Of a DNA stretch of 64,000 nucleotides, positions 7,169 through 25,923 are shown piece after piece. A model generated the notes under the pieces. The model did no database searches. It had not been told where the DNA came from and saw only the letters and a list, made by a program, of their open reading frames with translations. Position 1 is the first letter of the stretch. Every line of letters starts with the position of its first letter. The DNA lies in the NCBI GenBank assembly GCA_021108075.1, contig JAIORP010000135.1, positions 87,938 to 151,937 on the forward strand. Reading direction: 5' to 3'. Position numbers and translations under genes: made by a program. The DNA is from Candidatus Omnitrophota bacterium (GTDB lineage Bacteria; Omnitrophota; Gorgyraeia; Zapsychrales; Zapsychraceae).

Positions 7169-7192
7169 TGATTATGTCGTTCTTATAATATT

Positions 7193-9460: not shown

Positions 9461-9471
9461 AGAGTCTTAGC

Positions 9472-10962
9472 ATGAGTTATGCCGGCCGTGAAAAAATTTT
9501 AATCCTTTCGATATTTCTCTTCTGCATCATACTGGCTAAAATTATCACGGAGACGTCTTATCTTGTTCCCTTAATGATCATCATCAGCATCACGGGTTTT
9601 TTGATCGCCTTCACACATACGCACATGGCCATGATCTTTCTTATTTTCTCCATGTTATTATCCCCGGAGTTAATCGTCGGAAGTGTGACGAAAAGAGACA
9701 TCGTTATCCGAATAGACGACTTATTGATCCTTGTCTTTAGTCTCGCATGGATCGCCCGGTCCGCTATCAATAAAAATTTAACGATCATAACCAAGACCCC
9801 GATCAACCGCTTTATTGCCTTTTACTGCTTTATGTTTTCTTTAAGCACGATTAACGGGATTCTCTTTGAAACAGTCAGCCCCTTCAAGGGGATATTCTAT
9901 ATACTTAAATATATTGAATATTATTTTATTTTTTATCTCGCCGCAGGGATCTTAAAAAATAAGCCCCAGATGAAAACCTATATCAAAGCCATTATCATCA
10001 CCTATGCGATCGTTAATATTTACGCTTTCCTGCAAATCGGCACGCACGGCCGTGTTTCCGCACCCTTCGAGGGGAAGGTAGGGGAGCCGAACACATTAGG
10101 CGGCTATCAGGTCTTAATATTGGGGATCATTATTGGCTTATTAACTCATACAACCTTTTCGCCGAAATGGAAATGGACACTAATCCTCGTCGCCCTGTTT
10201 TCTCTCATCCCTTTCGCCTATACGTTATCACGTTCCGCTTACATGTCCATAATTCCGATGTATTTCACCCTGATTTTTTTCAACAAATCAAAAAAAAGGA
10301 ATATTCTGATTGGAATTTTGATCATTTGTGTCATTGTGTCGATTTTCTTTTTCCCTCAGAACATCAAAGACCGTATCAAGTACACGTTTATCCCGCATCC
10401 CCAGGAGCATATTGAACCTGTAAAATTTCTCGGAGTCAGCCTCGGCCCTTCAGCGTCAGCACGTATTCAGGACTGGATAAGGGTCTATAAAAAATGGCAA
10501 AACAAACCCTTCCTAGGGTATGGCGTGACCGGTATGGGTTTTCTGGATAGTCAATTTATTAGAACTTTTGTCGAGTTAGGACTCCTGGGGTTCTTCGCGT
10601 TCTGCGCCCTGTTATTGAGCATCGGATATCACACGTTAAAAATTTACAAAACAACCAAAGATCCTTTCTACAAAGGATTATCCCTTGGCTTCTTTGCGGC
10701 GCACTTAGGCATGATTGCGCATGCCATCACAGCGAACACCTATATCATCATCCGCATCATGGAACCTTACTGGTTCTTGGCCGCCATGGTCATGTGCATT
10801 CCCCGTCTGGAGGCCCGGCATCAACAGGCTTTGATCATGAATCAGGAACAGGCTCAACTGGAAGATGACGAAGAGGGGGTTCCTTTACTGAAAAAGCCCA
10901 ATTACAACATCGCGCATTTACTGAACTACAGCAATGTCAAACATAAGGACCATCATTATTAA
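9472..10962 (+). CDS. O-antigen ligase / Wzy_C-domain polytopic membrane protein (putative O-glycosylation ligase or polymerase)
   Basis: At least 10 TM helices. Wzy_C-type motifs YTLSRSAYMSI and KPFLGYGVTGMGF. Confidence 0.65.
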   Translation: MSYAGREKILILSIFLFCIILAKIITETSYLVPLMIIISITGFLIAFTHTHMAMIFLIFSMLLSPELIVGSVTKRDIVIRIDDLLILVFSLAWIARSAINKNLTIITKTPINRFIAFYCFMFSLSTINGILFETVSPFKGIFYILKYIEYYFIFYLAAGILKNKPQMKTYIKAIIITYAIVNIYAFLQIGTHGRVSAPFEGKVGEPNTLGGYQVLILGIIIGLLTHTTFSPKWKWTLILVALFSLIPFAYTLSRSAYMSIIPMYFTLIFFNKSKKRNILIGILIICVIVSIFFFPQNIKDRIKYTFIPHPQEHIEPVKFLGVSLGPSASARIQDWIRVYKKWQNKPFLGYGVTGMGFLDSQFIRTFVELGLLGFFAFCALLLSIGYHTLKIYKTTKDPFYKGLSLGFFAAHLGMIAHAITANTYIIIRIMEPYWFLAAMVMCIPRLEARHQQALIMNQEQAQLEDDEEGVPLLKKPNYNIAHLLNYSNVKHKDHHY

Positions 10963-10974
10963 AGGCTTAAAAAC

Positions 10975-11853
10975 ATGAATCCGATCAATCAAGAAACAAC
11001 ATCCTCATACCAAATCCACATCCGTCCGAATAAAAGCTGGCATCACATGAATTGGCATGCGATATGGGAATACCGTGACCTGCTTTTTTTGCTGGTACGG
11101 CGTGATTTCGTATCCAAATATAAACAGACTATTCTCGGGCCGTTATGGTTTATCCTCCAGCCATTGGCAACGACCATTGTTTTCACGGTTGTCTTTAGCC
11201 GTGTCGCCCGCATCCCAACGGATTCCATTCCGCCCATGTTATTTTATCTTTGCGGGTTAATCGGCTGGATGTATTTTGCGAACTGTCTTAATTACACATC
11301 GACGACATTTGTTACGAACGCCGGAATCTTCAACAAAGTTTATTTCCCGCGCTTGATCATCCCGTTTTCTGTTATCATTTCCCGTTTTCTTGCCTTTATC
11401 ATCCAATTTGTCATGTTCATCGGATTTTATATTTTTTATAAATTTTTTACCCCCGCGTCTGATACGTTTCATTTAAACCCCGCGGCACTGATATTCTTTC
11501 CCTTGCTGATTATGCTCACAGCTTTATTAGGATTGGGCATGGGACTCTGGTTATCCGCTTTAACAGCAAAATACCGTGATTTAACACAATTAACGACCTT
11601 CTTAACCTCTTTGTGGATGTACGCGACACCCGTTATTTATCCCTTGTCGCTCATACCGGCCAAATGGCATAAAGTGATGGCCCTTAATCCCATGGCGGGT
11701 ATCGTCGAAGCTTATCGTTACTGTTTCTTCAGCGTCACTGTTGGGAATTTATTTTTTTACATGCTCAGTTCCATCATAATGACGCTGATCATCCTTATTT
11801 CCGGTATATTAATTTTCAATAAAACTGAACGTAATTTTATCGATACAATATAA
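10975..11853 (+). CDS. wzm: ABC-2 type polysaccharide exporter permease (Wzm/KpsM/TagG family)
   Basis: 6-TM ABC-2 permease. N-terminal ILGPLWFILQPLATTIVFTVVFSRVA is typical of Wzm. Confidence 0.85.
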   Translation: MNPINQETTSSYQIHIRPNKSWHHMNWHAIWEYRDLLFLLVRRDFVSKYKQTILGPLWFILQPLATTIVFTVVFSRVARIPTDSIPPMLFYLCGLIGWMYFANCLNYTSTTFVTNAGIFNKVYFPRLIIPFSVIISRFLAFIIQFVMFIGFYIFYKFFTPASDTFHLNPAALIFFPLLIMLTALLGLGMGLWLSALTAKYRDLTQLTTFLTSLWMYATPVIYPLSLIPAKWHKVMALNPMAGIVEAYRYCFFSVTVGNLFFYMLSSIIMTLIILISGILIFNKTERNFIDTI

Positions 11854-11857
11854 AAAC

Positions 11858-13186
11858 ATGAAACCCATCATTGAAATAGAAAAATTATCAAAACTGTACC
11901 GCCTGGGGAGTATCAGCGCGAACACATTCCAGGATTCACTGAAAAACTGGTTTCACCGTATTAAAAATAGCCCTCCTGCGACCGCCGATAAATCCTCTTC
12001 GCGTTTGATGATTGATCCTAACGACCCTCAGGCCGGGCCAGAACCCAATACCCTGTGGGCGCTCAGAGACATTTCTTATGAACTCCAGGAAGGGGAAATC
12101 CTCGGGATTATCGGACGCAATGGTGCCGGTAAATCGACGCTGCTCAAAATCCTGACCCAGATTACCGAACCAACCTCTGGCCAGGCTGTCCTGCGCGGCC
12201 GAACAGCGTCTTTATTAGAAATTGGCACGGGATTTCACCCTGAACTAACGGGCCGCGAAAACATCTATTTAAACGGGGCTATACTTGGAATGAAAAAAAA
12301 AGAAATTGATTCCAAATTCGAAGAAATTGTCGACTTTTCAGGCATTCCCAAATTCATCGATACACCTGTCAAACGATACTCCAGCGGCATGTATGTTCGC
12401 CTGGCTTTTGCGGTCGCGGCCCATCTCGAACCGGAGATACTGTTAGTTGATGAAGTATTGGCCGTGGGAGATGTCGAATTCCAGAAAAAATGTTTGGGCA
12501 AGATGAAAAATGTTTCAAAGAGCGGCCGGACAATCCTGTTTGTCAGTCACAATATGCAAGCGATCAAGCAATTATGTACCCAAACGATCATCCTTGACAA
12601 AGGACGAATGATATTCAGCGGCAGCGCGGAGTCCGCGGTGGATAAATATTTAGGTGACGGGTTGTCACTAAAAGGCGAACAAATCTGGGATCATACTCAG
12701 ACCGCGCCAGGCGATGATATCGTTCGTGTCCATTCTGTGCGCGTCATGAACACCGATAACCGTTCGCGCACGCAATTCGATGTTCGTGATCCGATGACAA
12801 TTGAGTTAAAATATACTGTTTATGAAGATGGACATCAACTTGCCACTCAGATCTACTTGTTTAATGATGCCGGCCAGGTTATTTTAAACACGAAAGACAA
12901 CAAAGACTCCCCCTGGGGAGATCGTTGCATCCCAAAAGGCTCCTATTGCGCGCGCTGTACGGTTCCAGCAGACCTGATCAATGAAGGACAGATATCTATC
13001 GGCATCGGTATCGGAACGGTCGGGCCGTCTTATTTCATCGGGCACGTCACAATATATGATGCTGTTATATTCGCCGTGACAGATGCTTTTGATCCAGAGG
13101 GAGTGAGGGGTAACTATCCCTTCGAATGGAAAGTGGGCGACATCCGCACGCACATCCCATGGAAGGTGGAGCGCCTTGAAAACTAA
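11858..13186 (+). CDS. wzt: ABC transporter ATP-binding protein Wzt with a C-terminal glycan-binding (Wzt_C-like) extension
   Basis: Walker A GRNGAGKST, signature YSSGMYVRLAFA, Walker B LLVDEVLAVGD. About 190-aa beta-rich C-terminal extension beyond the NBD. Confidence 0.85.
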   Translation: MKPIIEIEKLSKLYRLGSISANTFQDSLKNWFHRIKNSPPATADKSSSRLMIDPNDPQAGPEPNTLWALRDISYELQEGEILGIIGRNGAGKSTLLKILTQITEPTSGQAVLRGRTASLLEIGTGFHPELTGRENIYLNGAILGMKKKEIDSKFEEIVDFSGIPKFIDTPVKRYSSGMYVRLAFAVAAHLEPEILLVDEVLAVGDVEFQKKCLGKMKNVSKSGRTILFVSHNMQAIKQLCTQTIILDKGRMIFSGSAESAVDKYLGDGLSLKGEQIWDHTQTAPGDDIVRVHSVRVMNTDNRSRTQFDVRDPMTIELKYTVYEDGHQLATQIYLFNDAGQVILNTKDNKDSPWGDRCIPKGSYCARCTVPADLINEGQISIGIGIGTVGPSYFIGHVTIYDAVIFAVTDAFDPEGVRGNYPFEWKVGDIRTHIPWKVERLEN

Positions 13187-14037: not shown

Positions 14038-15219
14038 ATGAAGACATTTTCAAAACTGACCGGTCGCTTACTTGGACAACCGATGTTCCATCTTTTAGAA
14101 AAAATTGAACGATTTAAAAAAGCCGGCCGGGATATCATCCATCTGGAAATCGGTGATGCCGACTTCCGCGCGCACCAACACATCATTGATGCAACAAAAA
14201 ACGCGCTTGATGCCGACAAGACGCATTACGTCAATTCCATGGGGCTGAATGAACTCCGGGACGCTATTTGTGAATATACGCTGCAAACCCTGGATTTTCG
14301 GCCCCGGAGGGAACAGGTTCTTGTTATGCCGGCACATGCCATCATCGACACGCTTATCCGGTGTGTTGCTAATCCAGGAGATGAAATTATATGCCCTGAG
14401 CCGGGATTTTCAAGTTATCATGCCGTGCTGACATATTTGAATCTAAAAAAAACTTCCATCCCTTTAAAAGAAGAAAATAAATTCTGCCTGCAAGCCGCTG
14501 ATATCGAGCCTAAAATCCATGATCACACACGATTGCTCATCATCACATCACCGAATAATCCAACCGGTTCCGTTTTATCAAAAAAACAAGTCCGGGATAT
14601 CGCTTTACTGTGTCAACAAAAAGACATCTACCTTTTAAGTGATGAAATATATTCCCGCGTGATTTATGAAGGGCAACACTATTCCTGTAGTTTTCTGGAT
14701 CAATGCCGTGAAAGAACAATTATTTTAAACGGTTTCGGGAAATCATTTTCCATGCCGGGATGGAGACTTGGTTATGCCATCGGACCGGTAGACTTAATCC
14801 AGAAAATGGGACTGTTATTTCAAACGATTTATTCCTGCTGTTCGCCGTTCAATCAATACGGGGCCATTGAAGCTTTGACAGGAAACCAGGAGGTTGTTGA
14901 GGCCAGAATAAAAACATATAAATCCCTGCGGGATTTCATCCTCTCAGAAATCAATGATATCCCCGGGATAACATGCACCGCCCCTAAAGGCGCCTTTTAT
15001 ATTTTTCCGAATATCAAAGAAACCGGCCTAACAAGTGCGGCGTTTGCCGATTATATGCTGAAAAAAGCTGATGTGGCCTTATTACCCGGAACACATTTTG
15101 GGCAAACAGGCGAGGGCTATGTCCGCATTTGTTTCACAAAAAAACAAGACGAACTTCACAGAGCGTGTGAACGGATCAGAAACGCCTTAAAGGAGAGGGT
15201 GCAATGCGACCAATTCTAA
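14038..15219 (+). CDS. PLP-dependent aminotransferase, class I/II (AspAT fold)
   Basis: NGFGKSFSMPGWRLGY (SxxK lysine motif) and an overall class-I aminotransferase layout. Confidence 0.8.
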   Translation: MKTFSKLTGRLLGQPMFHLLEKIERFKKAGRDIIHLEIGDADFRAHQHIIDATKNALDADKTHYVNSMGLNELRDAICEYTLQTLDFRPRREQVLVMPAHAIIDTLIRCVANPGDEIICPEPGFSSYHAVLTYLNLKKTSIPLKEENKFCLQAADIEPKIHDHTRLLIITSPNNPTGSVLSKKQVRDIALLCQQKDIYLLSDEIYSRVIYEGQHYSCSFLDQCRERTIILNGFGKSFSMPGWRLGYAIGPVDLIQKMGLLFQTIYSCCSPFNQYGAIEALTGNQEVVEARIKTYKSLRDFILSEINDIPGITCTAPKGAFYIFPNIKETGLTSAAFADYMLKKADVALLPGTHFGQTGEGYVRICFTKKQDELHRACERIRNALKERVQCDQF

Positions 15220-16370
15220 TCAATGATATTACCCTGCGTGATGGTGAACAGGCGCCCGGAGTCAATTTTTATCCGGAGGAAAAATGCCGCATAGCCGAAC
15301 AGCTGCTAAAAATGAACATTCCTATTATTGAAGCCGGTTTTGCGATTGCTTCGGACAACGACTTTGATGCGATTCAAATGATCAGCAAAAGATTCGGACA
15401 CAAATCCGGTCCGGTCATCTGTTCCATGGCACGCGCGACCCTCAGAGATATTGAACGCGCAGCAGAATCCGTCCGCCCCGCGGCCAGAGGCCGGGTCCAG
15501 GTCGTTTTGGGCACGTCGGACATCCATCTCAAATACAAATTCAAAAAAACACGCAATGAAATCAAAGATATCGCGCATAAAACGGTCCGTTACGCCAAAA
15601 CACTTTGTGCTGATATCGAATTCGCCGCGGAAGACGCGACAAGAAGCGATATTGATTTTTTAACGGAAGTCACGCAAATCGCGGTTGCGGCCGGGGCAAC
15701 GACCATTGAGTTACCGGACACAGTTGGATATGCCACTCCGCACGAATATGCGCATCTCGTTCAACATATCGTTGATCATATGGATCCGGGCATCACCGTT
15801 GCCACACACTGTCACAATGATTTAGGCCTGGCGGTCGCCAACACCCTTTTTGGTATTATGGCCGGCGCTTCCCAGGCGGAAGTAACGATAAACGGCATCG
15901 GTGAACGGGTGGGCAATGCCTCAGCCGAAGAAGTCATTATGGCGTTAAAAACACGACAGGATTACTTTCAAATCCAATTGGATATCAATACCAAAGAAAT
16001 CATGAAGACATCAGAATTAGTGGAAGAACTATCGGCCATCAAGGTTGCAAACAATAAAGCCATCGTCGGCTGCAATGCCTTTCGCCATGAATCAGGCATC
16101 CACCAGGACGGTTTGATCAAAAACAAAAGCACCTATCAAATCATGGAACCGGAAGACATCGGTGTTAAAGGGTATGGTCTTGTCTTAGGAAAGCTTTCCG
16201 GCCGGCATGCCTTGCAGGATAAGATCCAATCATTCGGGCTCACAATGAATGATCAGGAGTTTGACCGATTCTACATGGCATTCAAAGATGTGGCCTCTAA
16301 AAAAAAGTTTCTGTTAGAAGAAGATCTTCTCAAACTCATAAAGAAGCATGGCTATGAAACGATCAAGTGA
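15204..16370 (+). CDS. LeuA/NifV/CimA-family (HMGL-like, DRE-TIM metallolyase) acyl-CoA:2-oxoacid condensing enzyme. Short form without the LeuA regulatory domain.
   Basis: ITLRDGEQAPG and HCHNDLGLAVANTL motifs. 388 aa. Confidence 0.75.
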   Translation: MRPILINDITLRDGEQAPGVNFYPEEKCRIAEQLLKMNIPIIEAGFAIASDNDFDAIQMISKRFGHKSGPVICSMARATLRDIERAAESVRPAARGRVQVVLGTSDIHLKYKFKKTRNEIKDIAHKTVRYAKTLCADIEFAAEDATRSDIDFLTEVTQIAVAAGATTIELPDTVGYATPHEYAHLVQHIVDHMDPGITVATHCHNDLGLAVANTLFGIMAGASQAEVTINGIGERVGNASAEEVIMALKTRQDYFQIQLDINTKEIMKTSELVEELSAIKVANNKAIVGCNAFRHESGIHQDGLIKNKSTYQIMEPEDIGVKGYGLVLGKLSGRHALQDKIQSFGLTMNDQEFDRFYMAFKDVASKKKFLLEEDLLKLIKKHGYETIK

Positions 16371-17247
16371 TTACCATTCAATTCCAGACCTCGCGCAATT
16401 GTTTTCAAAAGAACAATCGATCGGTATATTTGAAAAAATGTGCCTGTGCCGTTATTTCGAACTGGAGGTGGCCAATGCCTATGAAAAAAGTCTTATCGCC
16501 AGTCCGATCTACTTATCCATCGGGCAGGAATCCATTTCAGCAGCTTTGTCGACGGTGATTTCTAATTTTACCATTTTTGCTCAACACCGCTGCCACTCGG
16601 CCTATTTAGCCTTCGGGGGAGACCAGCATAAAATTGTCGACGAACTCCTCGGGCGTCCAACAGGCTGCGCTTTTGGGCAAGGCGGTTCACCCATGCTACA
16701 GGACCCGGATATCCCCATGATCGGACATCATGGATTAATCGGTGAAAATATTCCTCTGGCGGTCGGTTATGCCTTAGGCAGTACTCAGCCAACTTTATGT
16801 CTTTTCGGAGATGCGGCAGCAGAAGAAGATTATGCCCTGACCGCTATGGGATTTGCGTCAAAACATCAACTGCCCGTTTTATTTGTTTGTGAAGACAATG
16901 ATTTGTCCATTTTAACGCCGACAGAGGTCCGCCGAAACTGGGAAATCTGCGATGTTGCGCAGGCCCTGAACATGCCAGCTGTTGATATCACGGATGACCC
17001 CTGGTTAATCGCTCATCACGCGCAAGAACTCATCCAGTCATTGCCAGCGTTCATCAACTGCCGCACCTGCCGGCATTACTGGCACGCAGGGGTCGGCATT
17101 GATCATGAACCGGAATGGGACCGTCTTCAACTCGTTAAAGATCAATTAAAGACGTTAAGCATTAACGCCCAGGACATCGAAGAACAGACAAAACAAGACA
17201 TAAAAGGATTATGGGAAAAACTGTTGCCGAAACAATTAAAGATCTAA
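16348..17247 (+). CDS. TPP-binding subunit of a split TPP-dependent enzyme (2-oxoacid dehydrogenase E1-alpha-like or transketolase N-terminal-like)
   Basis: GDAAAEEDYALTAMGFASKHQLPVLFVCEDNDLSI matches the TPP-binding GDG...E...N motif region. Confidence 0.65.
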   Translation: MAMKRSSDYHSIPDLAQLFSKEQSIGIFEKMCLCRYFELEVANAYEKSLIASPIYLSIGQESISAALSTVISNFTIFAQHRCHSAYLAFGGDQHKIVDELLGRPTGCAFGQGGSPMLQDPDIPMIGHHGLIGENIPLAVGYALGSTQPTLCLFGDAAAEEDYALTAMGFASKHQLPVLFVCEDNDLSILTPTEVRRNWEICDVAQALNMPAVDITDDPWLIAHHAQELIQSLPAFINCRTCRHYWHAGVGIDHEPEWDRLQLVKDQLKTLSINAQDIEEQTKQDIKGLWEKLLPKQLKI

Positions 17248-18140
17248 CCTTTGATCACTTAAAAAATAATAACGGACTGCTCTTAGGCCAGGCCATTACG
17301 GCCGTGGGCTATGTGAACCATACTGTTCCGAAAAATTGTCCGGGCATCATTGAACTCTCCATGGCTGACGTCGCGGGTTCAGGCATCGCAGTTGGAACAG
17401 CTCTTGCGGGTCGAAGACCTATTTTAGTTATCCGCTTCCAGGACTTTTTGATCTTAAACGGCAGTATGTTGATCAACTATGCCGCCAAATCAAAAGATAT
17501 GTTTCAACAGCCCTCACCGATCTTCGTGCGCGCATTAGCCATTGAAGGACACGGTGCCGGACCGGTTCACTCAGCAAAACTTCATAATATCTTCATGCAT
17601 TTTCCCGGATTCCGTGTTTGGGCGCCGATAACACCGAATGAATATAAACAAACATGGACAGACTTTTTGGAGCATGATGATCCGGTCATCTCCTGCGAAC
17701 ATCGCAGCAGCTTTTCTTCTCGTGATGAATATGCGAATGAAATAGAACCGGCTGCGGATATCACCCTATTCGGCATATCTGTTGGACGGACGAACATCAT
17801 AAAAGCAGCGCGGACATTACGGGCTGAGGGGATCACGGTCAACCTTGTTCATATCGTCCAACTCAAACCACTTGTACTGCAACAATCATGGCTTGAGGCT
17901 TTAAGCCGCAGCCATTGCGGACTGGTGGTCGACACGGGCTTTGAAACTTGCGGGGCCGGCCAAAACATTGCCTATGAATTGATGTTAAAGACGAATAAAC
18001 CTGTTCAGGCATTGGGACTCAAGGACGTCTCTGTAGGCGTTTCCGGGGATAAAGAAAATTTAACACCCCGTCCGGAGCAAATTGTTACAGCGGTTAAAAA
18101 TAGGCTAAGAAACCGGTCAGGTCCGATGCGGTCAGCTTAA
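17211..18140 (+). CDS. Pyrimidine-binding/C-terminal subunit of the split TPP enzyme (E1-beta-like or transketolase C-terminal-like)
   Basis: Transketolase_pyr-like region (SMADVAGSGIAVGTALAGRRP...FQDFLILNGSMLINYAAK) plus a C-terminal domain. Overlaps the upstream subunit gene in another frame. Confidence 0.65.
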   Translation: MGKTVAETIKDLTFDHLKNNNGLLLGQAITAVGYVNHTVPKNCPGIIELSMADVAGSGIAVGTALAGRRPILVIRFQDFLILNGSMLINYAAKSKDMFQQPSPIFVRALAIEGHGAGPVHSAKLHNIFMHFPGFRVWAPITPNEYKQTWTDFLEHDDPVISCEHRSSFSSRDEYANEIEPAADITLFGISVGRTNIIKAARTLRAEGITVNLVHIVQLKPLVLQQSWLEALSRSHCGLVVDTGFETCGAGQNIAYELMLKTNKPVQALGLKDVSVGVSGDKENLTPRPEQIVTAVKNRLRNRSGPMRSA

Positions 18141-18158: not shown

Positions 18159-18893
18159 ATGTCAGTATTTAATTTTCAAAATAAAACCGCGGTCGTAACA
18201 GGGGGAACACGCGGTATCGGCCGAGCGGTCGCGAAAGGTCTCCTCGAATCAGGAGCAAAAGTGATCGTAACGGGCACAAAGGAATCACCCGCCTGGTTAA
18301 ACAACTATCCCCGGGCACAGCATATGACATTAGACTTTCTTAAAGAAAACAGCCTGTCATCATTTATGGCGTCGTTTCCACCGGAACAGGCGGTCGACAT
18401 TCTCATTAATAATGCCGGTATCCACATACCAAAACCTTTTACAGAACTAACACAACAGGACTGGGAAGATATCATGAGAATCAATATTATCGGCCCGGCA
18501 GATCTCATCAATAAAATGATCCCCTTTATGCGAAAAAATGTGTCCGGAAACATCCTCAATATGAGTTCGATCGCTGGATTCATCGCCCGTCCGGGATCAA
18601 CGGCTTACTCGGCGAGCAAATCCGCCTTAAATGCTTTCACCCGGTCACTCGCTTTAGAACTGGCAAAGGATAACATCAAGGTTAACGCTCTTTGCCCTGG
18701 AACAACAGAAACAGATATGGTTAAAGAACAAATGGATGAAGACCGGCGCAAACATTTTCTATCACTTATTCCGATGCAGCGTTTTGCCCTTCCTGAAGAA
18801 ATCGCCCAATGGGCTTTGTTCCTTTGTTCAGACTTGAATACTTATATGACCGGGCAAACGGTCATTGTGGACGGCGGGGCAACCATACAATAA
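18159..18893 (+). CDS. Short-chain dehydrogenase/reductase (FabG-like SDR)
   Basis: TGGTRGIGRAVA Rossmann motif and YSASK catalytic motif. Strong AGGAGG-like RBS. Confidence 0.85.
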   Translation: MSVFNFQNKTAVVTGGTRGIGRAVAKGLLESGAKVIVTGTKESPAWLNNYPRAQHMTLDFLKENSLSSFMASFPPEQAVDILINNAGIHIPKPFTELTQQDWEDIMRINIIGPADLINKMIPFMRKNVSGNILNMSSIAGFIARPGSTAYSASKSALNAFTRSLALELAKDNIKVNALCPGTTETDMVKEQMDEDRRKHFLSLIPMQRFALPEEIAQWALFLCSDLNTYMTGQTVIVDGGATIQ

Positions 18894-18926: not shown

Positions 18927-20081
18927 ATGAAAAAAATCGCCATGATACCTGTTCGACTGAACAGTCAACGGGTTCCAAATAAAAATTTAAGGCTGCTCAA
19001 TGGCAAACCGATGGTCGCCTATATCATCGAAACGGCATTGGCAACAAATACTTTTGATGAGGTTTACCTGAATTCCGAAGCGGAAATATTTAAGGAAATA
19101 GCCGACCAATATGGCATTAAATTTTACCACCGTCCGGCAGAACTGGCCTCAGACCGGTCAACGAGTGAGGACTTTGTCTATGACTTCATCAAAAATGTTG
19201 AAGGGGATGTGCTCTACCAGCTGCTGGCGACATCACCATTAATCACTCCCATGGAAATCACACATTTTGTGCATGATATGTCCCTGAATGCATTAGACAC
19301 GCTGGTTTCAATCGTGAATCATCGCATCGCGAGCCTCTACAAAAAGCAACCGGTTAATTACGGATTAACAGAAAAATTGAAGAGCTCTCAGACGATGGTC
19401 CCTGTCCAAACATACGCGACGGTTCTTATGGCCTGGCGATATGAAAACTTCAAGGCCAATATGGAAACGCATGGATGCGCTTATTATGGTGGTGACGGTC
19501 GGATTGGATATTATGAATTGAAGGGATTATCCGCCATTGACGTGGACCAGGAAGAAGATTTTATTTTAGCTGAAATCGCGATGCAATATCGAAATGAATC
19601 CCGTCAGGATCAACCGCGGTATTACACATCCAAAAAACAAAAAAACGAACATAGTGAAGTGGATGTTCCGGAAATCCTACGCAAAGACGGCGTCAGCCTT
19701 CGCGATTTTGAACACGAAAATCAACCCTTATTTCACGTGCAGCAGATCATTGATAAGATGGGAACCAACCAATCCTGGTCATACCGGGTGGTTAACACGG
19801 AAAGTAACAGCGCAACCTTAATATCACAAATGCCCGGAGGAGGGAATCGACGGCATTATCATCCAGACTGGAATGAATGGTGGTACATCATCAAAGGTCA
19901 ATGGAAATGGGAAATTGAAGGCAAAAAAATCATTGTCAAAAAAGGTGATATCGTTTTTATCGAAAAGAATAAATGGCACCAAATTACGGCGATGGGAGAA
20001 GAATCTGCTATCCGTCTGGCTGTCAGCCGTGGTGATGTGCCGCACATTTACACAGAGGACATTGAAAACCCATGCCAATAA
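18927..20081 (+). CDS. Acylneuraminate/Kdo-type cytidylyltransferase-family domain (CTP_transf_3) fused to a C-terminal cupin domain
   Basis: N-terminal MKKIAMIPVRLNSQRVPNKNL...GKP (CMP-sugar synthetase family). C-terminal HYHPDWNEWWYIIKG...KWHQI cupin-like motifs. Confidence 0.7.
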   Translation: MKKIAMIPVRLNSQRVPNKNLRLLNGKPMVAYIIETALATNTFDEVYLNSEAEIFKEIADQYGIKFYHRPAELASDRSTSEDFVYDFIKNVEGDVLYQLLATSPLITPMEITHFVHDMSLNALDTLVSIVNHRIASLYKKQPVNYGLTEKLKSSQTMVPVQTYATVLMAWRYENFKANMETHGCAYYGGDGRIGYYELKGLSAIDVDQEEDFILAEIAMQYRNESRQDQPRYYTSKKQKNEHSEVDVPEILRKDGVSLRDFEHENQPLFHVQQIIDKMGTNQSWSYRVVNTESNSATLISQMPGGGNRRHYHPDWNEWWYIIKGQWKWEIEGKKIIVKKGDIVFIEKNKWHQITAMGEESAIRLAVSRGDVPHIYTEDIENPCQ

Positions 20082-20848
20082 AAAATAATCAAGAAATCAC
20101 ACAATTATTTCAACCGTTATTACAAGAAGCCCGAGAACTGATACAGAAAAAACCTCTTAAAATTTATGAATCACAACAAAAAGATATTTCCATAAACTTG
20201 GATCTGATGCTGCATGACCTGATAAAAAATTTCTTATCCCAACACTTTTCCTTTGATGTCCTATCCGAAGAAGATAAGGACCAGTGCGACTTTCTGAAGC
20301 AAACACAACCCGTCTGGATCATTGATCCGCTGGATGGATCTTTCAATGTCAGCCGTCAGATCCCGATGTCTTGCCTATCGTTGGGGTTGTGGTATGATGA
20401 TACGCCCCGGTGGGGGCTTATTTACGATTTCAATCGGGATGAATTGTTTATCGGCTCACTGCCGGAGAATGAAATTTGTGCCCGGTCCGGTGCCTGGTGC
20501 AATCAGCAACCGATACAGCCGGCGCGTACCCCGGTCGCTGAAGGCGTTTTATCCACGGGCTACCCTTCATGGCGGGATTTCTCCGATGACGCCTTAAAAC
20601 GCTCCATTCAGCAGGTTCAATCCTGGAAGAAAATTCGCATGATTGGTTCAGCCGCGCTTTCCCTGGCCTGGGTTGGATGTGGACGGGTCGATGCGTATAT
20701 GGAAGAGGATATCCGGATTTGGGATGTCGCAGCAGGGTTGGCCATCGTGCAGGCGGCCGGGGGCCAGTTTGTCATGCAAAAAAACCAAAAAACAAATTTT
20801 GTCACGGTAAAAGCCGCCAATGGAACGATACCCGTAAATGAAATTTAA
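20072..20848 (+). CDS. Inositol-monophosphatase-family sugar phosphatase (IMPase/CysQ-like)
   Basis: WIIDPLDGSFN and WDVAAGLAIVQAAGG motifs. Confidence 0.75.
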   Translation: MPIKNNQEITQLFQPLLQEARELIQKKPLKIYESQQKDISINLDLMLHDLIKNFLSQHFSFDVLSEEDKDQCDFLKQTQPVWIIDPLDGSFNVSRQIPMSCLSLGLWYDDTPRWGLIYDFNRDELFIGSLPENEICARSGAWCNQQPIQPARTPVAEGVLSTGYPSWRDFSDDALKRSIQQVQSWKKIRMIGSAALSLAWVGCGRVDAYMEEDIRIWDVAAGLAIVQAAGGQFVMQKNQKTNFVTVKAANGTIPVNEI

Positions 20849-20880: not shown

Positions 20881-21870
20881 ATGATTAAAGTCGGAATCAT
20901 TGGTTTCGGAAAAATGGGAAAAATAAGGGCGCATGCGATAAAAGCGAACGCTCTCGGACAGATTGTGTCAATTTTTGAAGTTGATAAAAATCTCATTTCT
21001 GATGAATATCCTTTTGTTGAAAGCGTAGACGACATATTCAATAATGAGGACATCAATACCCTTTTCATTTGCACACCCAATTATTTAAACAAAGATCTCA
21101 CGATAAGAAGCCTTCAGGCCGGCAAACATGTCTTTTGTGAAAAACCGCCGGCATTTAATGAGCAAGATATGCAGGCCGTCATTGCCGTTGAAAAAAAAAC
21201 GGACACGAAGTTGATGTACGGGTTTAATCATCGGCACCATACCAGCATCAAGCACATTAAACACCTGATTGATTCAGGAGAATACGGGAACATCTTATGG
21301 ATGCGCGGACGTTATGGTAAAAGCACGGACACGTCTTTTTTTGATACCTGGCGGGCCAAAAAAAAACTTGCGGGCGGGGGCATTTTATTAGATCAGGGCA
21401 TTCACATGTTAGATCTTTTCCTGTGTTTTGCCAAGGACTTTCATGAGACACATTCTTTTGTGTCCAATTTATATTGGAAGTTGGAGATCGAAGACAATGT
21501 CTTTGCCATCCTCAGAAACAATAACAATGGCATTGTTGCCTCATTGCATTCAACGATGACACAATGGCGCCATCTTTTTTCTCTGGAAATCTTCCTGGAA
21601 AAAGGATATTTTGTTTTAAATGGACTAAAAACTTCAAGTGGTACTTACGGCGATGAAATATTAACGATAGCTAAGAATCGCTCGACCGCTCCGGCGGCAA
21701 CATGGGAAGATGAAGAAAAAATCGTCTATCAAACCGACCGGTCCTGGCGCTCAGAAATCGATTATTTCTTTGATGCCATCTTAAAAGACACGCCCATTGA
21801 AGTCGGCAATTCTTTAGACGCCCTTAAATTGATGGCGATCACAGATAAGCTATACCAGGAAAGGACCTAA
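20881..21870 (+). CDS. Gfo/Idh/MocA-family NAD(P)-dependent oxidoreductase
   Basis: N-terminal IKVGIIGFGKMGK Rossmann region, EKP motif, typical length. Confidence 0.75.
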   Translation: MIKVGIIGFGKMGKIRAHAIKANALGQIVSIFEVDKNLISDEYPFVESVDDIFNNEDINTLFICTPNYLNKDLTIRSLQAGKHVFCEKPPAFNEQDMQAVIAVEKKTDTKLMYGFNHRHHTSIKHIKHLIDSGEYGNILWMRGRYGKSTDTSFFDTWRAKKKLAGGGILLDQGIHMLDLFLCFAKDFHETHSFVSNLYWKLEIEDNVFAILRNNNNGIVASLHSTMTQWRHLFSLEIFLEKGYFVLNGLKTSSGTYGDEILTIAKNRSTAPAATWEDEEKIVYQTDRSWRSEIDYFFDAILKDTPIEVGNSLDALKLMAITDKLYQERT

Positions 21871-21871
21871 G

Positions 21872-22435
21872 ATGGAGGATAAACAATTCATTGAGACCTA
21901 TTTTCAAACGTTTCAACAATGTATTCAGCCCGGCGGGATCGAAGAAGACATGCTGAAAATGCGGGATATCATGCTTGCGGCTAACCGCGCGAGAAAAAAA
22001 ATTATCTTCGCCGGCAACGGAGCAAGCGCGACAATTGCCAGTCATTGCGCCTTAGATTACACAAAACAAGCGGGTATCCGTTCAACATGTTTTAACGAAG
22101 CCGCATTATTAACGGCTTTTGGAAACGATTTTGGTTATGAAATGTGGCTGCAAAAAGCCCTGGAATTTTATGCCGATAAAGAAGATTTGATCGTCTTAAT
22201 CAGTTCTAGTGGCAAATCGCCGAATATCATCAACGCCGCACAATATGCTAAAGACAAAAAATTTACAATCGTAACATTGACAGGTTTTGATCCCAATAAT
22301 CCTTTAAAAAAAATGGGTGATATCAACTTCTGGGTAGAAAGCAAGTCCTATAATATGATTGAATGCACACATATGTTCTGGCTTGTTCTTGTTTGTGACC
22401 TTATTATCGGCAAATCAGAGTACAAAACATCGTAA
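21872..22435 (+). CDS. SIS-domain sugar-phosphate isomerase (GmhA-like sedoheptulose-7-phosphate isomerase type)
   Basis: 187 aa, single SIS domain, GNGASATIASHCALD and ISSSGKSPNII motifs. Confidence 0.7.
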   Translation: MEDKQFIETYFQTFQQCIQPGGIEEDMLKMRDIMLAANRARKKIIFAGNGASATIASHCALDYTKQAGIRSTCFNEAALLTAFGNDFGYEMWLQKALEFYADKEDLIVLISSSGKSPNIINAAQYAKDKKFTIVTLTGFDPNNPLKKMGDINFWVESKSYNMIECTHMFWLVLVCDLIIGKSEYKTS

Positions 22436-22515: not shown

Positions 22516-23976
22516 ATGTTAGACCTCCTTATTATAAAACCAGGCGCACAGCGCTTTCTATACCAAAAACTTAGCTCGTCTATTAGCGCGATCGAACCGC
22601 CACTGTGGGGACTATTGCTCGCAAACTTTATCCGTCAAAATGGATTTCAGGTTCAAATCAAAGATGCTGAAATTGACACGATTCAATCGATCCAAGAGAC
22701 GATAACAACCCGTAACCCCAAATTAATCGCCATCGTCGTATCAGGGACCAATCCTTCGGCCTCAACCATGAACATGGTCGGCGCAACGGCCATGATTCGT
22801 CATCTTCGACAATATTTTCCCGGGCTGAAAATCATCCTAATCGGATTACACCCTTCGGCGTTACCAGAACAGACGTTACGGGATGAAAATGTGGATTATG
22901 TCTGCGAGGGAGAAGGGTTTGAGACCACCCTGCTCTGGCTGCAGGGATCAAAATTAGAAGGAATCCCAGGTTTATGGTATAAAGAAGGGCTTCAAATAAA
23001 GCATCAAGAACGGGCGTGCTTAGTTGATCCCAACAGGATGCCCATGCCTGCCTGGGATCTCGTCGACTTAAACCGCTACCGCGCGCATAATTGGCACTGT
23101 TTTGGAAGCCTTGATCAACGCCAGCCATACGCGGTCATATATACGAGCCTCGGTTGTCCGTATCATTGTGACTTCTGCTGTATTCACGCGATATTCGGGC
23201 AGCCCAATATTCGTTACCGGTCCATCAACCTCATCATGGAAGAAGTGGATCTATTGGTCAATGATTATCATGTTAAAAACATAAAAATTCTTGATGAATG
23301 TTTTGTACTTGATCAGCAACATGTGTTAGAATTTTGTGAAGCGATGATCCGCCGCAAGTATTCGGTCAATATGTGGGCTTACGCCCGGATTAACACCATC
23401 AACGAAAAAATTCTTTTAAAAATGAAAGCGGCCGGCTTTCGTTGGATCGGCTATGGGATCGAATCAGGAACACCCGCGGTTTTAAGTGGTGTCCATAAAG
23501 CGCAATACGATAACCAAAAAATTTTTGACGTCGTCAAATTAACAAAAAAATCAGGGCTAAATGTCGGGGGGAATTTTATCTTTGGACTCCCGAATGACAA
23601 TATCGCGGGGATGCGGCGCACATTAGCCTTAGCCGTTCAACTCAATTGTGAATACGCGAACTTTTATACGGCGATGGCTTATCCGGGGTCAAAACTCTAT
23701 GATAAAGTCAGACATAAAGCCGGGCTATTACCCCGGACATGGGAAGGATATTCACAATTTGGAACAGAATGTTTTCCATTGCGCAATGATTTCTTAACAC
23801 AAACGGACATACTGGCTTTCCGCGATCAAGCTTTTATCGACTATTTTTCCCGGGCTGAATACCTTGATATGATTGAGCGAAAATTTGGAAGTCAGACAAT
23901 GCTTCATATCAATAAGATGACACAATACAAATTAAAGAGGACACTGCTAGAAGTCGACCAACAACAGCTGGCTTAA
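22516..23976 (+). CDS. B12-binding domain radical SAM protein (class B radical SAM, methyltransferase-like)
   Basis: N-terminal cobalamin-binding-like Rossmann region. CPYHCDFC (CxxxCxxC) radical SAM cluster motif. Confidence 0.8.
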   Translation: MLDLLIIKPGAQRFLYQKLSSSISAIEPPLWGLLLANFIRQNGFQVQIKDAEIDTIQSIQETITTRNPKLIAIVVSGTNPSASTMNMVGATAMIRHLRQYFPGLKIILIGLHPSALPEQTLRDENVDYVCEGEGFETTLLWLQGSKLEGIPGLWYKEGLQIKHQERACLVDPNRMPMPAWDLVDLNRYRAHNWHCFGSLDQRQPYAVIYTSLGCPYHCDFCCIHAIFGQPNIRYRSINLIMEEVDLLVNDYHVKNIKILDECFVLDQQHVLEFCEAMIRRKYSVNMWAYARINTINEKILLKMKAAGFRWIGYGIESGTPAVLSGVHKAQYDNQKIFDVVKLTKKSGLNVGGNFIFGLPNDNIAGMRRTLALAVQLNCEYANFYTAMAYPGSKLYDKVRHKAGLLPRTWEGYSQFGTECFPLRNDFLTQTDILAFRDQAFIDYFSRAEYLDMIERKFGSQTMLHINKMTQYKLKRTLLEVDQQQLA

Positions 23977-23986
23977 AGGAGAAATT

Positions 23987-24982
23987 ATGATCATCAGTCG
24001 TACACCGTTTAGAATTTCATTTTTTGGTGGAGGAACAGATTACCCCGCATGGTATGAAAAAAACGGAGGAGCGGTCTTATCAACGACTATCGATAAATAT
24101 TGTTATTTAACCTGCCGCTCTCTGCCCCCTTTCTTTGACCATCGCTACCGCATTGTTTATTCAAAGATTGAATTAGTCAAAGACGTCCACAAAATTCAAC
24201 ACCCGGTTGTCCGCGTATGCCTGGAAAACATGGATGTCCCGCAAGGGATTGAACTGCATCACGATGGGGATTTACCTGCCCGGACAGGCTTAGGTTCAAG
24301 CTCTGCTTTTACGGTTGGGCTGCTACACTCCCTCTACGCGCTCAAAGGGATCATGCCGACCAAAAAACGTCTTGCGGATGAAGCCATACATTTTGAAAGG
24401 GAAGTATTGAGTGAAGCTGTCGGCTCACAGGACCAGGTCGCTGTCGCTCATGGCGGGTTTAATAAAATTTCTTTCAGTCAAACCGGGGACTATCAAATAG
24501 ATCCCGTGATCTTAGACCGTGACCGCCTGGATAATTTGCAAAATCATATCATGCTTTACTTCACGGGTTTTTCCAGAATCGCCTCCAAGGTCGCACGGAA
24601 GCAAATTGAAAACACCCCTAAAAAGCAAAAAGAACTGGCCACCATGCAATCTATGGTCGACACGGCCATTGACATCTTATGCAATCGCAGGGACCTCACT
24701 GAATTCGGCCGGTTGCTGCATGAAACATGGATGCTGAAAAGATCGCTGACAGATAAAGTGTCAACAAACGATATCGATCAAATATATGCTGACGCCCGTT
24801 CTTCCGGCGCTATCGGAGGTAAACTCATTGGAGCTGGCGGGGGCGGATTCATGATTCTCTTTGTTCCGCCAAAGCTCCAGAATAAAGTTCGCGTGAAGTT
24901 AAACAATTTGTTGGAAGTAAAATTCAATTTTGAAACTTCTGGCACGCAAATTATTTTTCATAAAGAAGATCCTATCATATAA
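23987..24982 (+). CDS. GHMP-family sugar kinase (D-glycero-D-manno-heptose-7-phosphate kinase HddA-like)
   Basis: GHMP motif LPARTGLGSSSAFTVG. C-terminal GAGGGGF motif. Confidence 0.75.
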   Translation: MIISRTPFRISFFGGGTDYPAWYEKNGGAVLSTTIDKYCYLTCRSLPPFFDHRYRIVYSKIELVKDVHKIQHPVVRVCLENMDVPQGIELHHDGDLPARTGLGSSSAFTVGLLHSLYALKGIMPTKKRLADEAIHFEREVLSEAVGSQDQVAVAHGGFNKISFSQTGDYQIDPVILDRDRLDNLQNHIMLYFTGFSRIASKVARKQIENTPKKQKELATMQSMVDTAIDILCNRRDLTEFGRLLHETWMLKRSLTDKVSTNDIDQIYADARSSGAIGGKLIGAGGGGFMILFVPPKLQNKVRVKLNNLLEVKFNFETSGTQIIFHKEDPII

Positions 24983-24987
24983 CAAAC

Positions 24988-25923
24988 ATGTTGCAATTTG
25001 ATCAAACTGATTATTTGCCAAAATCGTCCCAACGAATTGAGCGGTTATACCGGATCGTCAACAATAGACCGGCCGCAATATTATGTCCGGGTCCGTCCAT
25101 CAACACGCTGGAGCAACGCATCCATGACCTGAAAAAAGAAAATATTTGTTGGGTTTCACTGAATCATTACACGGTCATTGAAAAAAATATTCTCAATCAA
25201 ATCAATAAGAACCTGTCGGTCTTATTTTGCAGCGCCCGGGAATTCTTACCGACATTATACGGTGATATTCAAAATTTCTTAAACCGTGATGATCAGAATA
25301 TCTTTATCTCTTCTTTTTGGCGTGAAGCATATGGACTCATGGATTCCTCATTCCAGCTCAAAGAGTTTATTAAAGAGTACGATGAGAAAATGTTATTTTT
25401 TTCAATCCAACAAAATGACAAAGTGCCCAATGAACACTTCCCGTTACATCTCATGCACAGCAACAGTTTGTTAGGGCTCATCCAGATGATATTACTCGGC
25501 CAACCTCAAGCGGTCTATCTGTTTGGGGCGGATGGGTATTGTCCGGATGATCAACCGCATTATTATCGGGCAGAGGATGACGGGCATAGGGGGGATGTCC
25601 ACAAAACAATCAAGGTCGGAAAACTTGAAGACTTAAAATACGACACGAATAAACTGTTTAACCCGGTTGCCCGCAAAGCGATAAGAAACGTCACGCAAAC
25701 ATTCAAACTACAAGAAACCAGCATATACAACTGCTCCCCTGAAAGTTATTATCTGCCATTTCCAAAGATTGCCTATGATGATGCCCTAAAACTTTTAACC
25801 CGGAAACAGGTGTTTAATCCAAAGATGGATCTGCGAACCCCGGAAGAAAAAAAACTCGTTCAATCCTATCAGCGAAGCGGATTTGTCAGCAAATTAAAAT
25901 CACTATTTCTTAGGAACGCATAA
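24988..25923 (+). CDS. Hypothetical protein, possibly a DUF115/MptE-like domain. Function unknown.
   Basis: LCPGPSI and LFGADGY motifs are reminiscent of DUF115. No firm motif. Confidence 0.35.
   Translation: MLQFDQTDYLPKSSQRIERLYRIVNNRPAAILCPGPSINTLEQRIHDLKKENICWVSLNHYTVIEKNILNQINKNLSVLFCSAREFLPTLYGDIQNFLNRDDQNIFISSFWREAYGLMDSSFQLKEFIKEYDEKMLFFSIQQNDKVPNEHFPLHLMHSNSLLGLIQMILLGQPQAVYLFGADGYCPDDQPHYYRAEDDGHRGDVHKTIKVGKLEDLKYDTNKLFNPVARKAIRNVTQTFKLQETSIYNCSPESYYLPFPKIAYDDALKLLTRKQVFNPKMDLRTPEEKKLVQSYQRSGFVSKLKSLFLRNA

Follow-up and report, generated by a model that had tools for sequence, protein, structure and literature searches.

The stretch analysed here (the window) comprises 64,000 nucleotides of contig JAIORP010000135.1 from a Candidatus Omnitrophota bacterium. 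The gene at 22516-23976 codes for a protein with a B12-binding domain and a radical S-adenosylmethionine (SAM) core which, by every sequence and model feature considered, is a class B radical SAM enzyme. As judged by sequence, it belongs to one large, so far uncharacterised orthologous family. The conserved unit in the genomes that carry this family consists of the radical SAM gene, the gene for a GHMP sugar kinase and the genes for a thiamine diphosphate (ThDP) enzyme. The initial annotation had stressed the position of the gene between an SIS-domain isomerase (21872-22435) and a GHMP kinase (23987-24982), which is correct for the window and is only part of the picture. The family probably serves to modify a heptose-type sugar in nucleotide-activated form, which would make it a rare building block of glycans on the cell surface. 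The exact reaction cannot be read from sequence; C-methylation is plausible, and the conserved unit together with the size of the family is a more informative result than the guess of a C-methyl group.

The enzyme class as such is known, while the family is uncharacterised, very widespread and found in a new setting, the synthesis of primary surface-glycan sugars coupled to ThDP chemistry. The sugar-acting class B enzymes GenK, GenD1, Fms7 and MoeK5 belong to antibiotic pathways (PMC9204698, PMC12931638), and neither in these two papers nor in a wider literature search could a class B radical SAM enzyme be found that has been assigned to ordinary cell-surface glycan biosynthesis. In the 2026 review of B12-radical SAM enzymes, the words sugar, polysaccharide and heptose are absent, and MoeK5 and GenK appear only among the Csp3 methylases (PMC12931638). 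Literature on radical SAM/GHMP kinase/polysaccharide, on cobalamin-dependent radical/heptose and on the O-polysaccharide of Herbaspirillum lusitanum yielded no study of the family. It occurs in hundreds of species from many phyla and is tied to a conserved sugar cassette of 6-9 genes. Knowledge of its reaction would reveal a new rare-sugar building block that is apparently widespread, would show radical and thiamine chemistry combined on sugars, and would give a B12 requirement for the envelope glycans of many uncultured lineages.

The radical SAM enzyme and its family

The open reading frame (ORF) starts with ATG and spans exactly 22516-23976 on the forward strand (486 residues). We consider the start codon to be right because the N-terminus lines up with the N-termini of the homologues. 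NCBI lists an identical protein from a Candidatus Omnitrophica metagenome-assembled genome under the name 'B12-binding domain-containing radical SAM protein'. With more than 5,000 homologues at E <= 0.001, the reality of the ORF and of its domains is confirmed far beyond chance. The features of the gene are:

22516..23976, + strand: class B (cobalamin-binding) radical SAM enzyme, 486 residues (ORF, Pfam PF02310 and PF04055, AlphaFold2)
22582..22926, + strand: N-terminal B12-binding Rossmann domain, residues 23-137 (PF02310, 54.7 bits, cut-off 32.1)
23140..23631, + strand: radical SAM core, residues 209-372, including GIESG with G314/E316 (PF04055, 56.9 bits, cut-off 29.5)
23155..23178, + strand: [4Fe-4S] motif CPYHCDFC, C214-P-Y-H-C218-D-F-C221 (translation, alignment A1)

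Both Pfam domains score above their cut-offs and the motifs for the cluster and for cobalamin contacts are present, so that the class B assignment of the initial annotation holds. In an alignment of 20 homologues with 49-55% identity to the window protein (A1), the cluster cysteines C214, C218 and C221 are invariant, as are G110, G132 and E133 of the N-terminal domain and G314 and E316 of the motif G314-I-E316-S-G318, which we take by its position to be the GGE-type SAM-binding motif. Residue S76 is Ser or Thr, T78 is kept in most members, and A-H-N-W-H (190-194) is conserved as a family signature. In the AlphaFold2 model (pLDDT 86.8, pTM 0.89) the N-terminal domain has a beta-alpha-beta fold, where S76-G-T78 follows beta3 (70-74) on the beta3-alpha3 loop, G110 follows beta4 (106-109) and G132-E133 lies ahead of alpha5 (135-142). 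In the solved class B enzymes, cobalamin is bound base-off and His-off and is contacted by a Ser/Thr motif on the beta3-alpha3 loop, a Gly on beta4 and a Gly-Glu before alpha5 (PMC9204698). Since these are the contacts in class B, the classical DxHxxG motif is dispensable. According to sequence and model, the motifs for base-off contacts are all present in the window protein. HMMs (hidden Markov models) of B12 families reach into the N-terminal domain (BchE from residue 16; ApyD, PhpK and BzaD from about residues 33-35), and TsrM (6wte) aligns from residue 34, while the AprD4 model aligns only from residue 149 (149-401). No membrane or carbohydrate-binding part is predicted by Pfam or the model.

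A scan with one genome per species confirmed 517 relatives, and an all-against-library search resulted in 3,117 clusters at 50% identity with E <= 1e-30. At least 517 species genomes, assigned to some 15 phyla or candidate divisions of different name, carry the family. The best 80 loci are from Omnitrophota, Planctomycetota, Thermodesulfobacteriota, Elusimicrobiota, Chloroflexota, Nitrospira, Verrucomicrobiota, Rokubacteria, KSB1, WWE3, Margulisiibacteriota, Myxococcota, Beta- and Gammaproteobacteria, Cyanobacteria and one Methanoperedenaceae archaeon. Cultured carriers are found in Azospirillum, Herbaspirillum, Solidesulfovibrio and the cyanobacteria.

Several relatives are fused or duplicated. 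A natural fusion of the radical SAM protein to the E1 alpha subunit of a ThDP enzyme occurs in candidate division WWE3 (P0121, 829 residues, L036:10001-12500), which supports consecutive or coupled radical SAM and ThDP steps. Two radical SAM units are combined in one protein of 1,173 residues (P0133). A distant relative (P0247, 30% identity, 1,879 residues) consists of a B12-radical SAM unit, a methyltransferase, a family 2 glycosyltransferase (GT2), another methyltransferase, another GT2 and a second B12-radical SAM unit. Additional B12-radical SAM paralogues are encoded in 19 of 82 loci, with up to three in tandem.

Many family members, among them P0129, P0135, P0136, P0145, P0147, P0156, P0195, P0235, P0258 and others, are interrupted by inteins (Intein_splicing, HINT, LAGLIDADG); the window protein is free of them. 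There are at least four intein sites, each of which breaks a catalytic motif: before C218 and before C221 of CxxxCxxC, before S317 of GIESG, and near residue 385 within NFYMAYPGS, between Y and M.

The conserved gene cassette

We compared the window proteins with the loci of the relatives by tblastn and clustered all neighbouring ORFs. Neighbour shares refer to the 44 complete loci, which extend for at least 8 kb on both sides of the radical SAM gene (SDR, short-chain dehydrogenase/reductase):

Two-subunit ThDP enzyme of any type (E1 alpha/beta or split transketolase): 93%
E1 beta: 55%; E1 alpha: 48%
Split transketolase: 25%
Orthologous GHMP kinase, median 58% identity: 86%
DegT-family protein (RfbH/ColD-type 3-dehydrase): 77%
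SDR 'Epi1': 61%; SDR 'Epi2': 57%
NTP_transferase (GDP-type nucleotidyltransferase): 43%
Small polyprenyl-phosphate-type GT2: 32%
SIS gene: 23%
GmhB-like phosphatase: 11%

The kinase orthologue was found in 64 of 84 loci and is immediately downstream of the radical SAM gene in 23. The commonest gene orders are Epi1-radical SAM-kinase-nucleotidyltransferase-DegT and ThDP pair-Epi2-Epi1-radical SAM-kinase. Within the cassette, E1 alpha/beta and split transketolase substitute for each other.

In 55 of the 59 DegT-family neighbours the lysine for pyridoxal phosphate is replaced by His, and RfbH, which acts as 3-dehydrase in 3,6-dideoxyhexose synthesis, is their top curated model. About half of these neighbours have a CxCxxC..C insert (an example is the gene at L053:11463-12665; range L005-L084), which from its sequence could be a ligand of a metal or an Fe-S cluster. 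Epi2 is nearest to GDP-L-fucose synthase. The sequence of Epi1 reads TTNSGYG at the position which is held by the TDE motif in 4,6-dehydratases. For the partner nucleotidyltransferase, HddC and mannose-1-phosphate guanylyltransferase give roughly the same score, and the small phosphatase comes closest to GmhB. On account of these identities of kinase, nucleotidyltransferase, phosphatase, SDRs and 3-dehydrase, the usual cassette can be read as an activation line of the GDP-heptose type. From the encoded proteins it looks like a heptose activation which is followed by 3-deoxygenation, ThDP carboligation and reduction, with the radical SAM enzyme as an additional step.

Orthologues with 44-47% identity are encoded on plasmids of Solidesulfovibrio magneticus RS-1 (pDMC1), Azospirillum lipoferum 4B, A. 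ramasamyi and A. argentinense Az39; three of them, DMR_RS21980 in S. magneticus, AZOLI_RS29160 in A. lipoferum and ABAZ39_RS32355 in A. argentinense, have 45-47% identity. The S. magneticus plasmid (L086) has a full cassette in the order GT2-GT2-radical SAM-NUDIX-kinase-E1 alpha-E1 beta-Fcl-like-DegT-SDR-nucleotidyltransferase. It is preceded by a small GT2 and followed by one small hypothetical gene and then by a GT-C glycosyltransferase gene ('phospholipid carrier-dependent glycosyltransferase'). Transposase genes of IS66, IS110, IS5 and Tn3 are close to the cassette in S. magneticus and on p5 of A. argentinense Az39 (L087); the plasmid location of the cassette and the nearby transposases suggest horizontal spread. 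The locus on p6 of A. lipoferum 4B (L085) is reduced, with only an Fcl-like gene, the radical SAM gene, the kinase gene and a NUDIX gene within 14 kb. The link between radical SAM and ThDP enzymes is thus not absolute, as the former occurs in A. lipoferum 4B with no ThDP enzyme nearby.

The reaction and its alternatives

Our tentative preference, to which we would give somewhat less than an even chance, is a cobalamin-dependent C-methylation of a heptose-type sugar or of its ThDP-installed side chain. The reduced [4Fe-4S] cluster would split SAM to a 5'-deoxyadenosyl radical, which would take a hydrogen from an unactivated carbon, probably a carbinol, either in the sugar or in the ThDP-installed acyl side chain. 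Methyl-cobalamin, recharged by a second SAM, would then give a methyl radical to form the C-methyl group. In the window, the sugar might be provided by the SIS isomerase, the GHMP kinase, the phosphatase and a cytidylyltransferase-cupin protein, and a carbonyl might be put in by a GFO/IDH/MocA (GFO) dehydrogenase. The branch would be attached by E1 alpha/beta, with a 2-oxo acid from an aminotransferase and a LeuA-like enzyme, and the glycan-borne product would be exported by Wzm/Wzt. Installation of branches on keto-sugars is described for ThDP E1 alpha/beta pairs (PMC4802897) and likewise for YerE-type enzymes (PMC9306805). The initial annotation had proposed a C-methylated branched sugar or heptose. 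A branched or modified product is reasonable because the operon-like run of the window also encodes an enzyme of the ThDP carboligase type, to which the family is linked more constantly than to any other partner; the methylation itself is a plausible guess, and no curated model reaches its threshold.

For pairwise comparison, the relatives were placed on one tblastn/BLASTP bit scale:

Probable MoeK5 orthologue, Streptomyces clavuligerus: 29% identity over 367 residues, 132 bits, E = 8e-38
Annotated HpnJ: 26% identity, 83-94 bits
Annotated BchE: 22-23% identity, 73-102 bits
Best match on the Streptomyces cattleya megaplasmid, possibly a thienamycin-cluster enzyme: 25% identity, 87 bits

The closest functionally assigned relative on this scale is the probable MoeK5 orthologue, with all identities at or below 29% and with GenK and Fom3 outside the comparison. 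It was found by tblastn against plasmids as a B12-radical SAM gene on pSCL4/pCLA1, with an epimerase gene and two asparagine-synthase-like genes upstream. The moe cluster on plasmid pSCL4 is described as syntenic with the one in Streptomyces ghanaensis (PMC3814723), and by this synteny the ORF is most probably MoeK5. Published lists count MoeK5, GenK and Fom3 among the Csp3 methylases (PMC12931638; PMC9204698), most characterised class B enzymes are methylases (PMC12931638), and HpnJ falls into one cluster with two methylases, Fom3 and MoeK5 (PMC9204698). The B12-radical SAM paralogues at 19 of 82 loci resemble multi-methylation pathways and, together with the proximity to MoeK5, tilt the balance toward a methylase. 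A Burkholderia stagnalis plasmid match (H22) was rejected as an HpnJ since its context resembles that of ribosomally synthesized and post-translationally modified peptides.

Among the systems which resemble the window enzyme, MoeK5, the proposed C-methylase of the first sugar unit of moenomycin, has the same two-domain architecture and a sugar substrate. It differs by low identity, by its place in a secondary-metabolite phosphoglycolipid pathway and by having no kinase, ThDP or 3-dehydrase partners. The likeness to GenK, GenD1 and Fom3, class B methylases of carbinol carbons in sugars or in a nucleotide-activated substrate (PMC9204698, PMC12931638), is by described chemistry only. GenK and GenD1 act on aminoglycoside sugars and Fom3 on CMP-activated 2-hydroxyethylphosphonate, all in antibiotic pathways and not in cell-surface glycan loci. 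HpnJ, with its proposed ring contraction to the hopanoid cyclitol ether, acts on a sugar ring, but it is weaker than the MoeK5 orthologue in the pairwise comparison and there are no hopanoid genes near the window gene. Yersiniose and erwiniose (YerE/ErwE; PMC9306805) and the E1 alpha/beta branching of paulomycose (PMC4802897) are paralleled by the usual cassette in nucleotidyltransferase, RfbH-type 3-dehydrase, ThDP carboligase and reductase. However, a radical SAM enzyme and an HddA-like kinase are both absent from these pathways. In the radical SAM cassettes the ThDP enzyme is E1 alpha/beta or split transketolase and not of the YerE type, and the window has no 3-dehydrase.

A number of results weigh against C-methylation of a heptose-type sugar. 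None of the curated family thresholds of NCBIfam is reached by the protein:

HpnJ (TIGR03471), best-scoring curated model: 149.9 bits over residues 82-456 (cut-off 577.6)
BchE (TIGR02026): 117.4 bits (cut-off 481.35)
Ladderane enzyme model: 95 bits (cut-off 360)
AprD4 (NF033070): 85.7 bits, residues 149-401 only (cut-off 500)
PhpK model: 74 bits (cut-off 600)
HpnR model: 58 bits (cut-off 650)

By these scores it is not a member of the HpnJ, BchE or AprD4 families. The best fold match is the non-methylating AprD4 (TM 0.71/0.76, E = 5e-22, 19% identity), which is also the best sequence match in PDB (6fd2, E = 1.5e-17), ahead of TsrM, the glutamine methylase MgmA, OxsB and CysS. No family member has been characterised so far, and 29% identity to the MoeK5 orthologue does not fix the chemistry. 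As far as the sugar is concerned, the SIS and GHMP proteins score far under the equivalog cut-offs of GmhA and HddA, and orthologues of the usual 3-dehydrase, of both SDRs and of the GDP-type nucleotidyltransferase were not found in the window. As these usual partners are absent and the nucleotidyltransferase is of the CMP-ulosonic-acid type, the substrate sugar in the window is uncertain, and the heptose assignment is weaker for the window than for the usual cassette.

With respect to a grouping with non-methylating B12-radical SAM families, which the initial annotation had named as evidence against its proposal, the MoeK5 orthologue is closer than HpnJ and BchE, a comparison of little power at such divergence, and AprD4 remains the best fold. 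The HMM ranking was dropped as evidence against a methylase. In a control, the best NCBIfam models for the MoeK5 orthologue itself are ApyD, HpnJ and BchE (134-138 bits), and since a proposed methylase gives this same pattern with similar scores, closeness to HpnJ or BchE says nothing on methylation.

The enzyme could instead be a non-methylating radical dehydratase or rearrangase which makes a carbonyl on the sugar, like AprD4 or with a ring contraction as proposed for HpnJ. Such a carbonyl, formed for instance at the exocyclic 6,7-diol of a heptose, would either accept a C2 extension or a branch from the ThDP enzyme or be reduced by an SDR to a deoxy position. We consider this unlikely on balance, even though AprD4 acts on a sugar as apramycin 1,2-diol dehydratase, is paired with an SDR-type reductase and is the best structural and PDB sequence match, while the best curated HMMs represent the non-methylases HpnJ and BchE. 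A radical-made carbonyl as ThDP acceptor would account for the fusion of radical SAM and E1 alpha in P0121. The ThDP enzyme is the most constant partner (93%), and the exchange of E1 alpha/beta for split transketolase fits an aldehyde or ketone acceptor which needs a source. In addition, the set of Fcl-like reductase, radical SAM enzyme, kinase and NUDIX protein in A. lipoferum resembles the pairing of dehydratase and reductase in AprD4/AprD3, and Epi1 has TTNSGYG in place of TDE. However, AprD4 is cobalamin-independent and only its radical SAM core (149-401) aligns, whereas the window protein has a well-conserved B12-binding domain which passes the Pfam threshold. Identity to AprD4 is 19%, as compared to 29% for the MoeK5 orthologue, and HpnJ and BchE are uninformative as top HMMs for the reason given above. 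Moreover, most characterised class B enzymes methylate (PMC12931638), and keto groups can already be supplied by the SDR, GFO and RfbH-type enzymes of the cassettes. A little less likely still is the more specific proposal that cobalamin-dependent dehydration or rearrangement of a heptose-type sugar exposes a carbonyl to which the coupled ThDP enzyme adds at least two carbons. If true, bacteria and archaea would have a widespread and hitherto undescribed way of making higher-carbon or branched sugars for their surfaces.

Two further proposals concern the substrate. Methylation of a non-sugar building block, a 2-oxo acid or amino-acid-derived unit from the aminotransferase and LeuA-like enzyme which E1 alpha/beta would join to the sugar afterwards, would agree with the gene order in L001 and L032 (aminotransferase, 2-isopropylmalate synthase (IPMS)-like, E1 alpha, E1 beta and then two or three radical SAM genes) and, from the IPMS-like gene onward, in L004 and L006. 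It would also agree with the existing radical SAM-E1 alpha fusion and with the tailored 2-oxo acids taken by ThDP enzymes of branched sugars (PMC9306805). But the pair of aminotransferase and IPMS-like genes occurs in only about 5 of 84 loci, the tightest partner is a sugar kinase, and the radical SAM gene is kept where no ThDP enzyme is nearby, so that we regard it as improbable. We would also place little weight on an action upon the lipid-linked or finished glycan rather than on a soluble precursor, for example upon a terminal residue read by the Wzt domain. Here, the constant partners are enzymes of soluble precursors (kinase, nucleotidyltransferase, 3-dehydrase and SDRs), and the lack of a predicted membrane or carbohydrate-binding part argues in the same direction. 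This stands against the Wzm/Wzt genes with Wzt_C located 9 kb upstream and those in several related loci, the fusion to GT2 and methyltransferase domains in P0247, the small polyprenyl-phosphate GT2 in 32% of the complete loci and the GT-C gene after the S. magneticus cassette.

Three other candidates were rejected. For a phosphonate pathway with a homocitrate-synthase-like enzyme and a B12-dependent P-methylase, neither phosphoenolpyruvate mutase nor phosphonopyruvate decarboxylase is present among the scanned window ORFs or the listed genes of related loci. Synthesis of erwiniose by C-methylation of a 3,6-dideoxy branched heptose is not tenable, as ErwE uses 4-hydroxy-2-oxopentanoate and a 3,6-dideoxy-4-keto-hexose and no radical SAM enzyme takes part (PMC9306805). 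A cyclitol or carbocycle, considered because of the Inositol_P and inositol-dehydrogenase-like neighbours, was abandoned since each of these occurs in 1 of 84 loci and generic roles as sugar phosphatase and sugar dehydrogenase fit.

The glycan locus in the window

Between about 2.3 and 53 kb, the forward strand of the window is one long glycan locus of about 50 kb. It includes a WecA-type GT4, Wza, Wzc, a Wzy_C protein, Wzm/Wzt with a Wzt_C domain, many GT2, GT4, GT9 and GT11 glycosyltransferases, several methyltransferases, a WbqC-like gene, a PIG-L deacetylase and a DegT aminotransferase. The run that leads to the radical SAM gene begins with a methyltransferase gene (13176) and continues with aminotransferase (14038), LeuA-like enzyme (15204), E1 alpha (16348), E1 beta (17211), SDR (18159), cytidylyltransferase-cupin (18927), phosphatase (20072), GFO (20881) and SIS (21872). 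After the radical SAM gene come the GHMP kinase, an ORF at 24988 and a GT2 (25923). The annotated features are:

10975..13186, + strand: Wzm/Wzt ABC exporter, Wzt with C-terminal carbohydrate-binding domain (Pfam ABC2_membrane, ABC_tran, Wzt_C)
14038..15219, + strand: class I/II aminotransferase (Pfam)
15204..16370, + strand: LeuA-like 2-alkylmalate synthase core without regulatory domain (520 bits to NF002086, cut-off 532)
16348..18140, + strand: two-subunit ThDP enzyme, E1 alpha 16348-17247 and E1 beta 17211-18140 (Pfam E1_dh, Transket_pyr/Transketolase_C)
18159..18893, + strand: SDR, FabG-like (Pfam adh_short_C2, 193 bits)
18927..20081, + strand: CMP-sugar synthetase-type cytidylyltransferase fused to a C-terminal cupin (Pfam CTP_transf_3 and Cupin_2)
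20072..20848, + strand: inositol-monophosphatase-family sugar phosphatase (Pfam Inositol_P, 139.8 bits)
20881..21870, + strand: GFO/IDH/MocA sugar dehydrogenase (Pfam; PDB relatives include glycoside 3-dehydrogenase DgpA and inositol dehydrogenases)
21872..22435, + strand: SIS-domain isomerase, GmhA-like (Pfam SIS_2; best NCBIfam model gmhA, 73.9 bits)
23987..24982, + strand: GHMP sugar kinase, HddA/WcbL-like (Pfam GHMP_kinases_N/C)

The window shares the radical SAM enzyme, the kinase and E1 alpha/beta with the usual cassette. In the stead of the other usual partners, there are the GFO dehydrogenase, the FabG-like SDR, the enzyme of the inositol-phosphatase family and the CMP-type cytidylyltransferase-cupin. 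E1 alpha/beta of the window type (50-62% identity), accompanied by the aminotransferase/LeuA-like pair, occurs only in a few loci from Planctomycetota, Chloroflexota and Nitrospira, where aminotransferase, IPMS, E1 alpha, E1 beta and radical SAM genes follow one another in this order and the last is present in as many as three copies.

A sugar-activation context with heptose-pathway-like genes, as described in the initial annotation, is indeed found on both sides of the radical SAM gene. The start codon of the kinase gene is 10 bases past the radical SAM stop codon, with an AGGAG ribosome-binding site ahead of it, and the best PDB matches of the kinase are the heptose kinases 3k85, 4usk (WcbL) and 4n3o. 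By score, both flanking proteins are heptose-pathway-like and not equivalogs (SIS: 73.9 vs 209.45 bits for GmhA; kinase: 142.8 vs 600 bits for HddA). The E1 alpha/beta pair is not accompanied by E2/E3, and the ThDP enzyme is a candidate carboligase. The GFO/IDH/MocA dehydrogenase is a candidate for making the keto-sugar, and the aminotransferase and LeuA-like enzyme possibly supply the 2-oxo-acid donor. That a glycan locus should combine the catalytic core of LeuA (2-isopropylmalate synthase) with a class I/II aminotransferase is an observation in its own right. The cytidylyltransferase-cupin aligns to the CMP-NeuAc synthetase 1qwj (residues 5-217). Such a fusion of a cupin to a synthetase of the CMP-NeuAc/Kdo type points to a CMP-activated, perhaps ulosonic-acid-like sugar, which has no obvious fit with a pathway that also holds an anomeric GHMP kinase.

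The ORF at 24988-25923 (311 residues) has no Pfam match; its matches to the class II aminoacyl-tRNA synthetase core in NCBIfam and PDB are weak and unconvincing (E about 1e-3 to 0.4). Homologues adjoin the cassette in two related loci (L045 and L052).

Several minor observations were made elsewhere in the window. At 6359-13186, genes of the Wza/Wzc/Wzy_C type lie beside the Wzm/Wzt exporter, so that parts of two export routes adjoin. A single ORF of 695 residues (26877-28964) holds three class I SAM methyltransferase domains, and two Methyltransf_24 proteins are encoded, one at 13176 and one at 49839. The first 2000 nucleotides have a low G+C content (0.36) and a strong positive AT skew (+0.39), and the ORF at 27-1979 (650 residues) belongs to no Pfam family.

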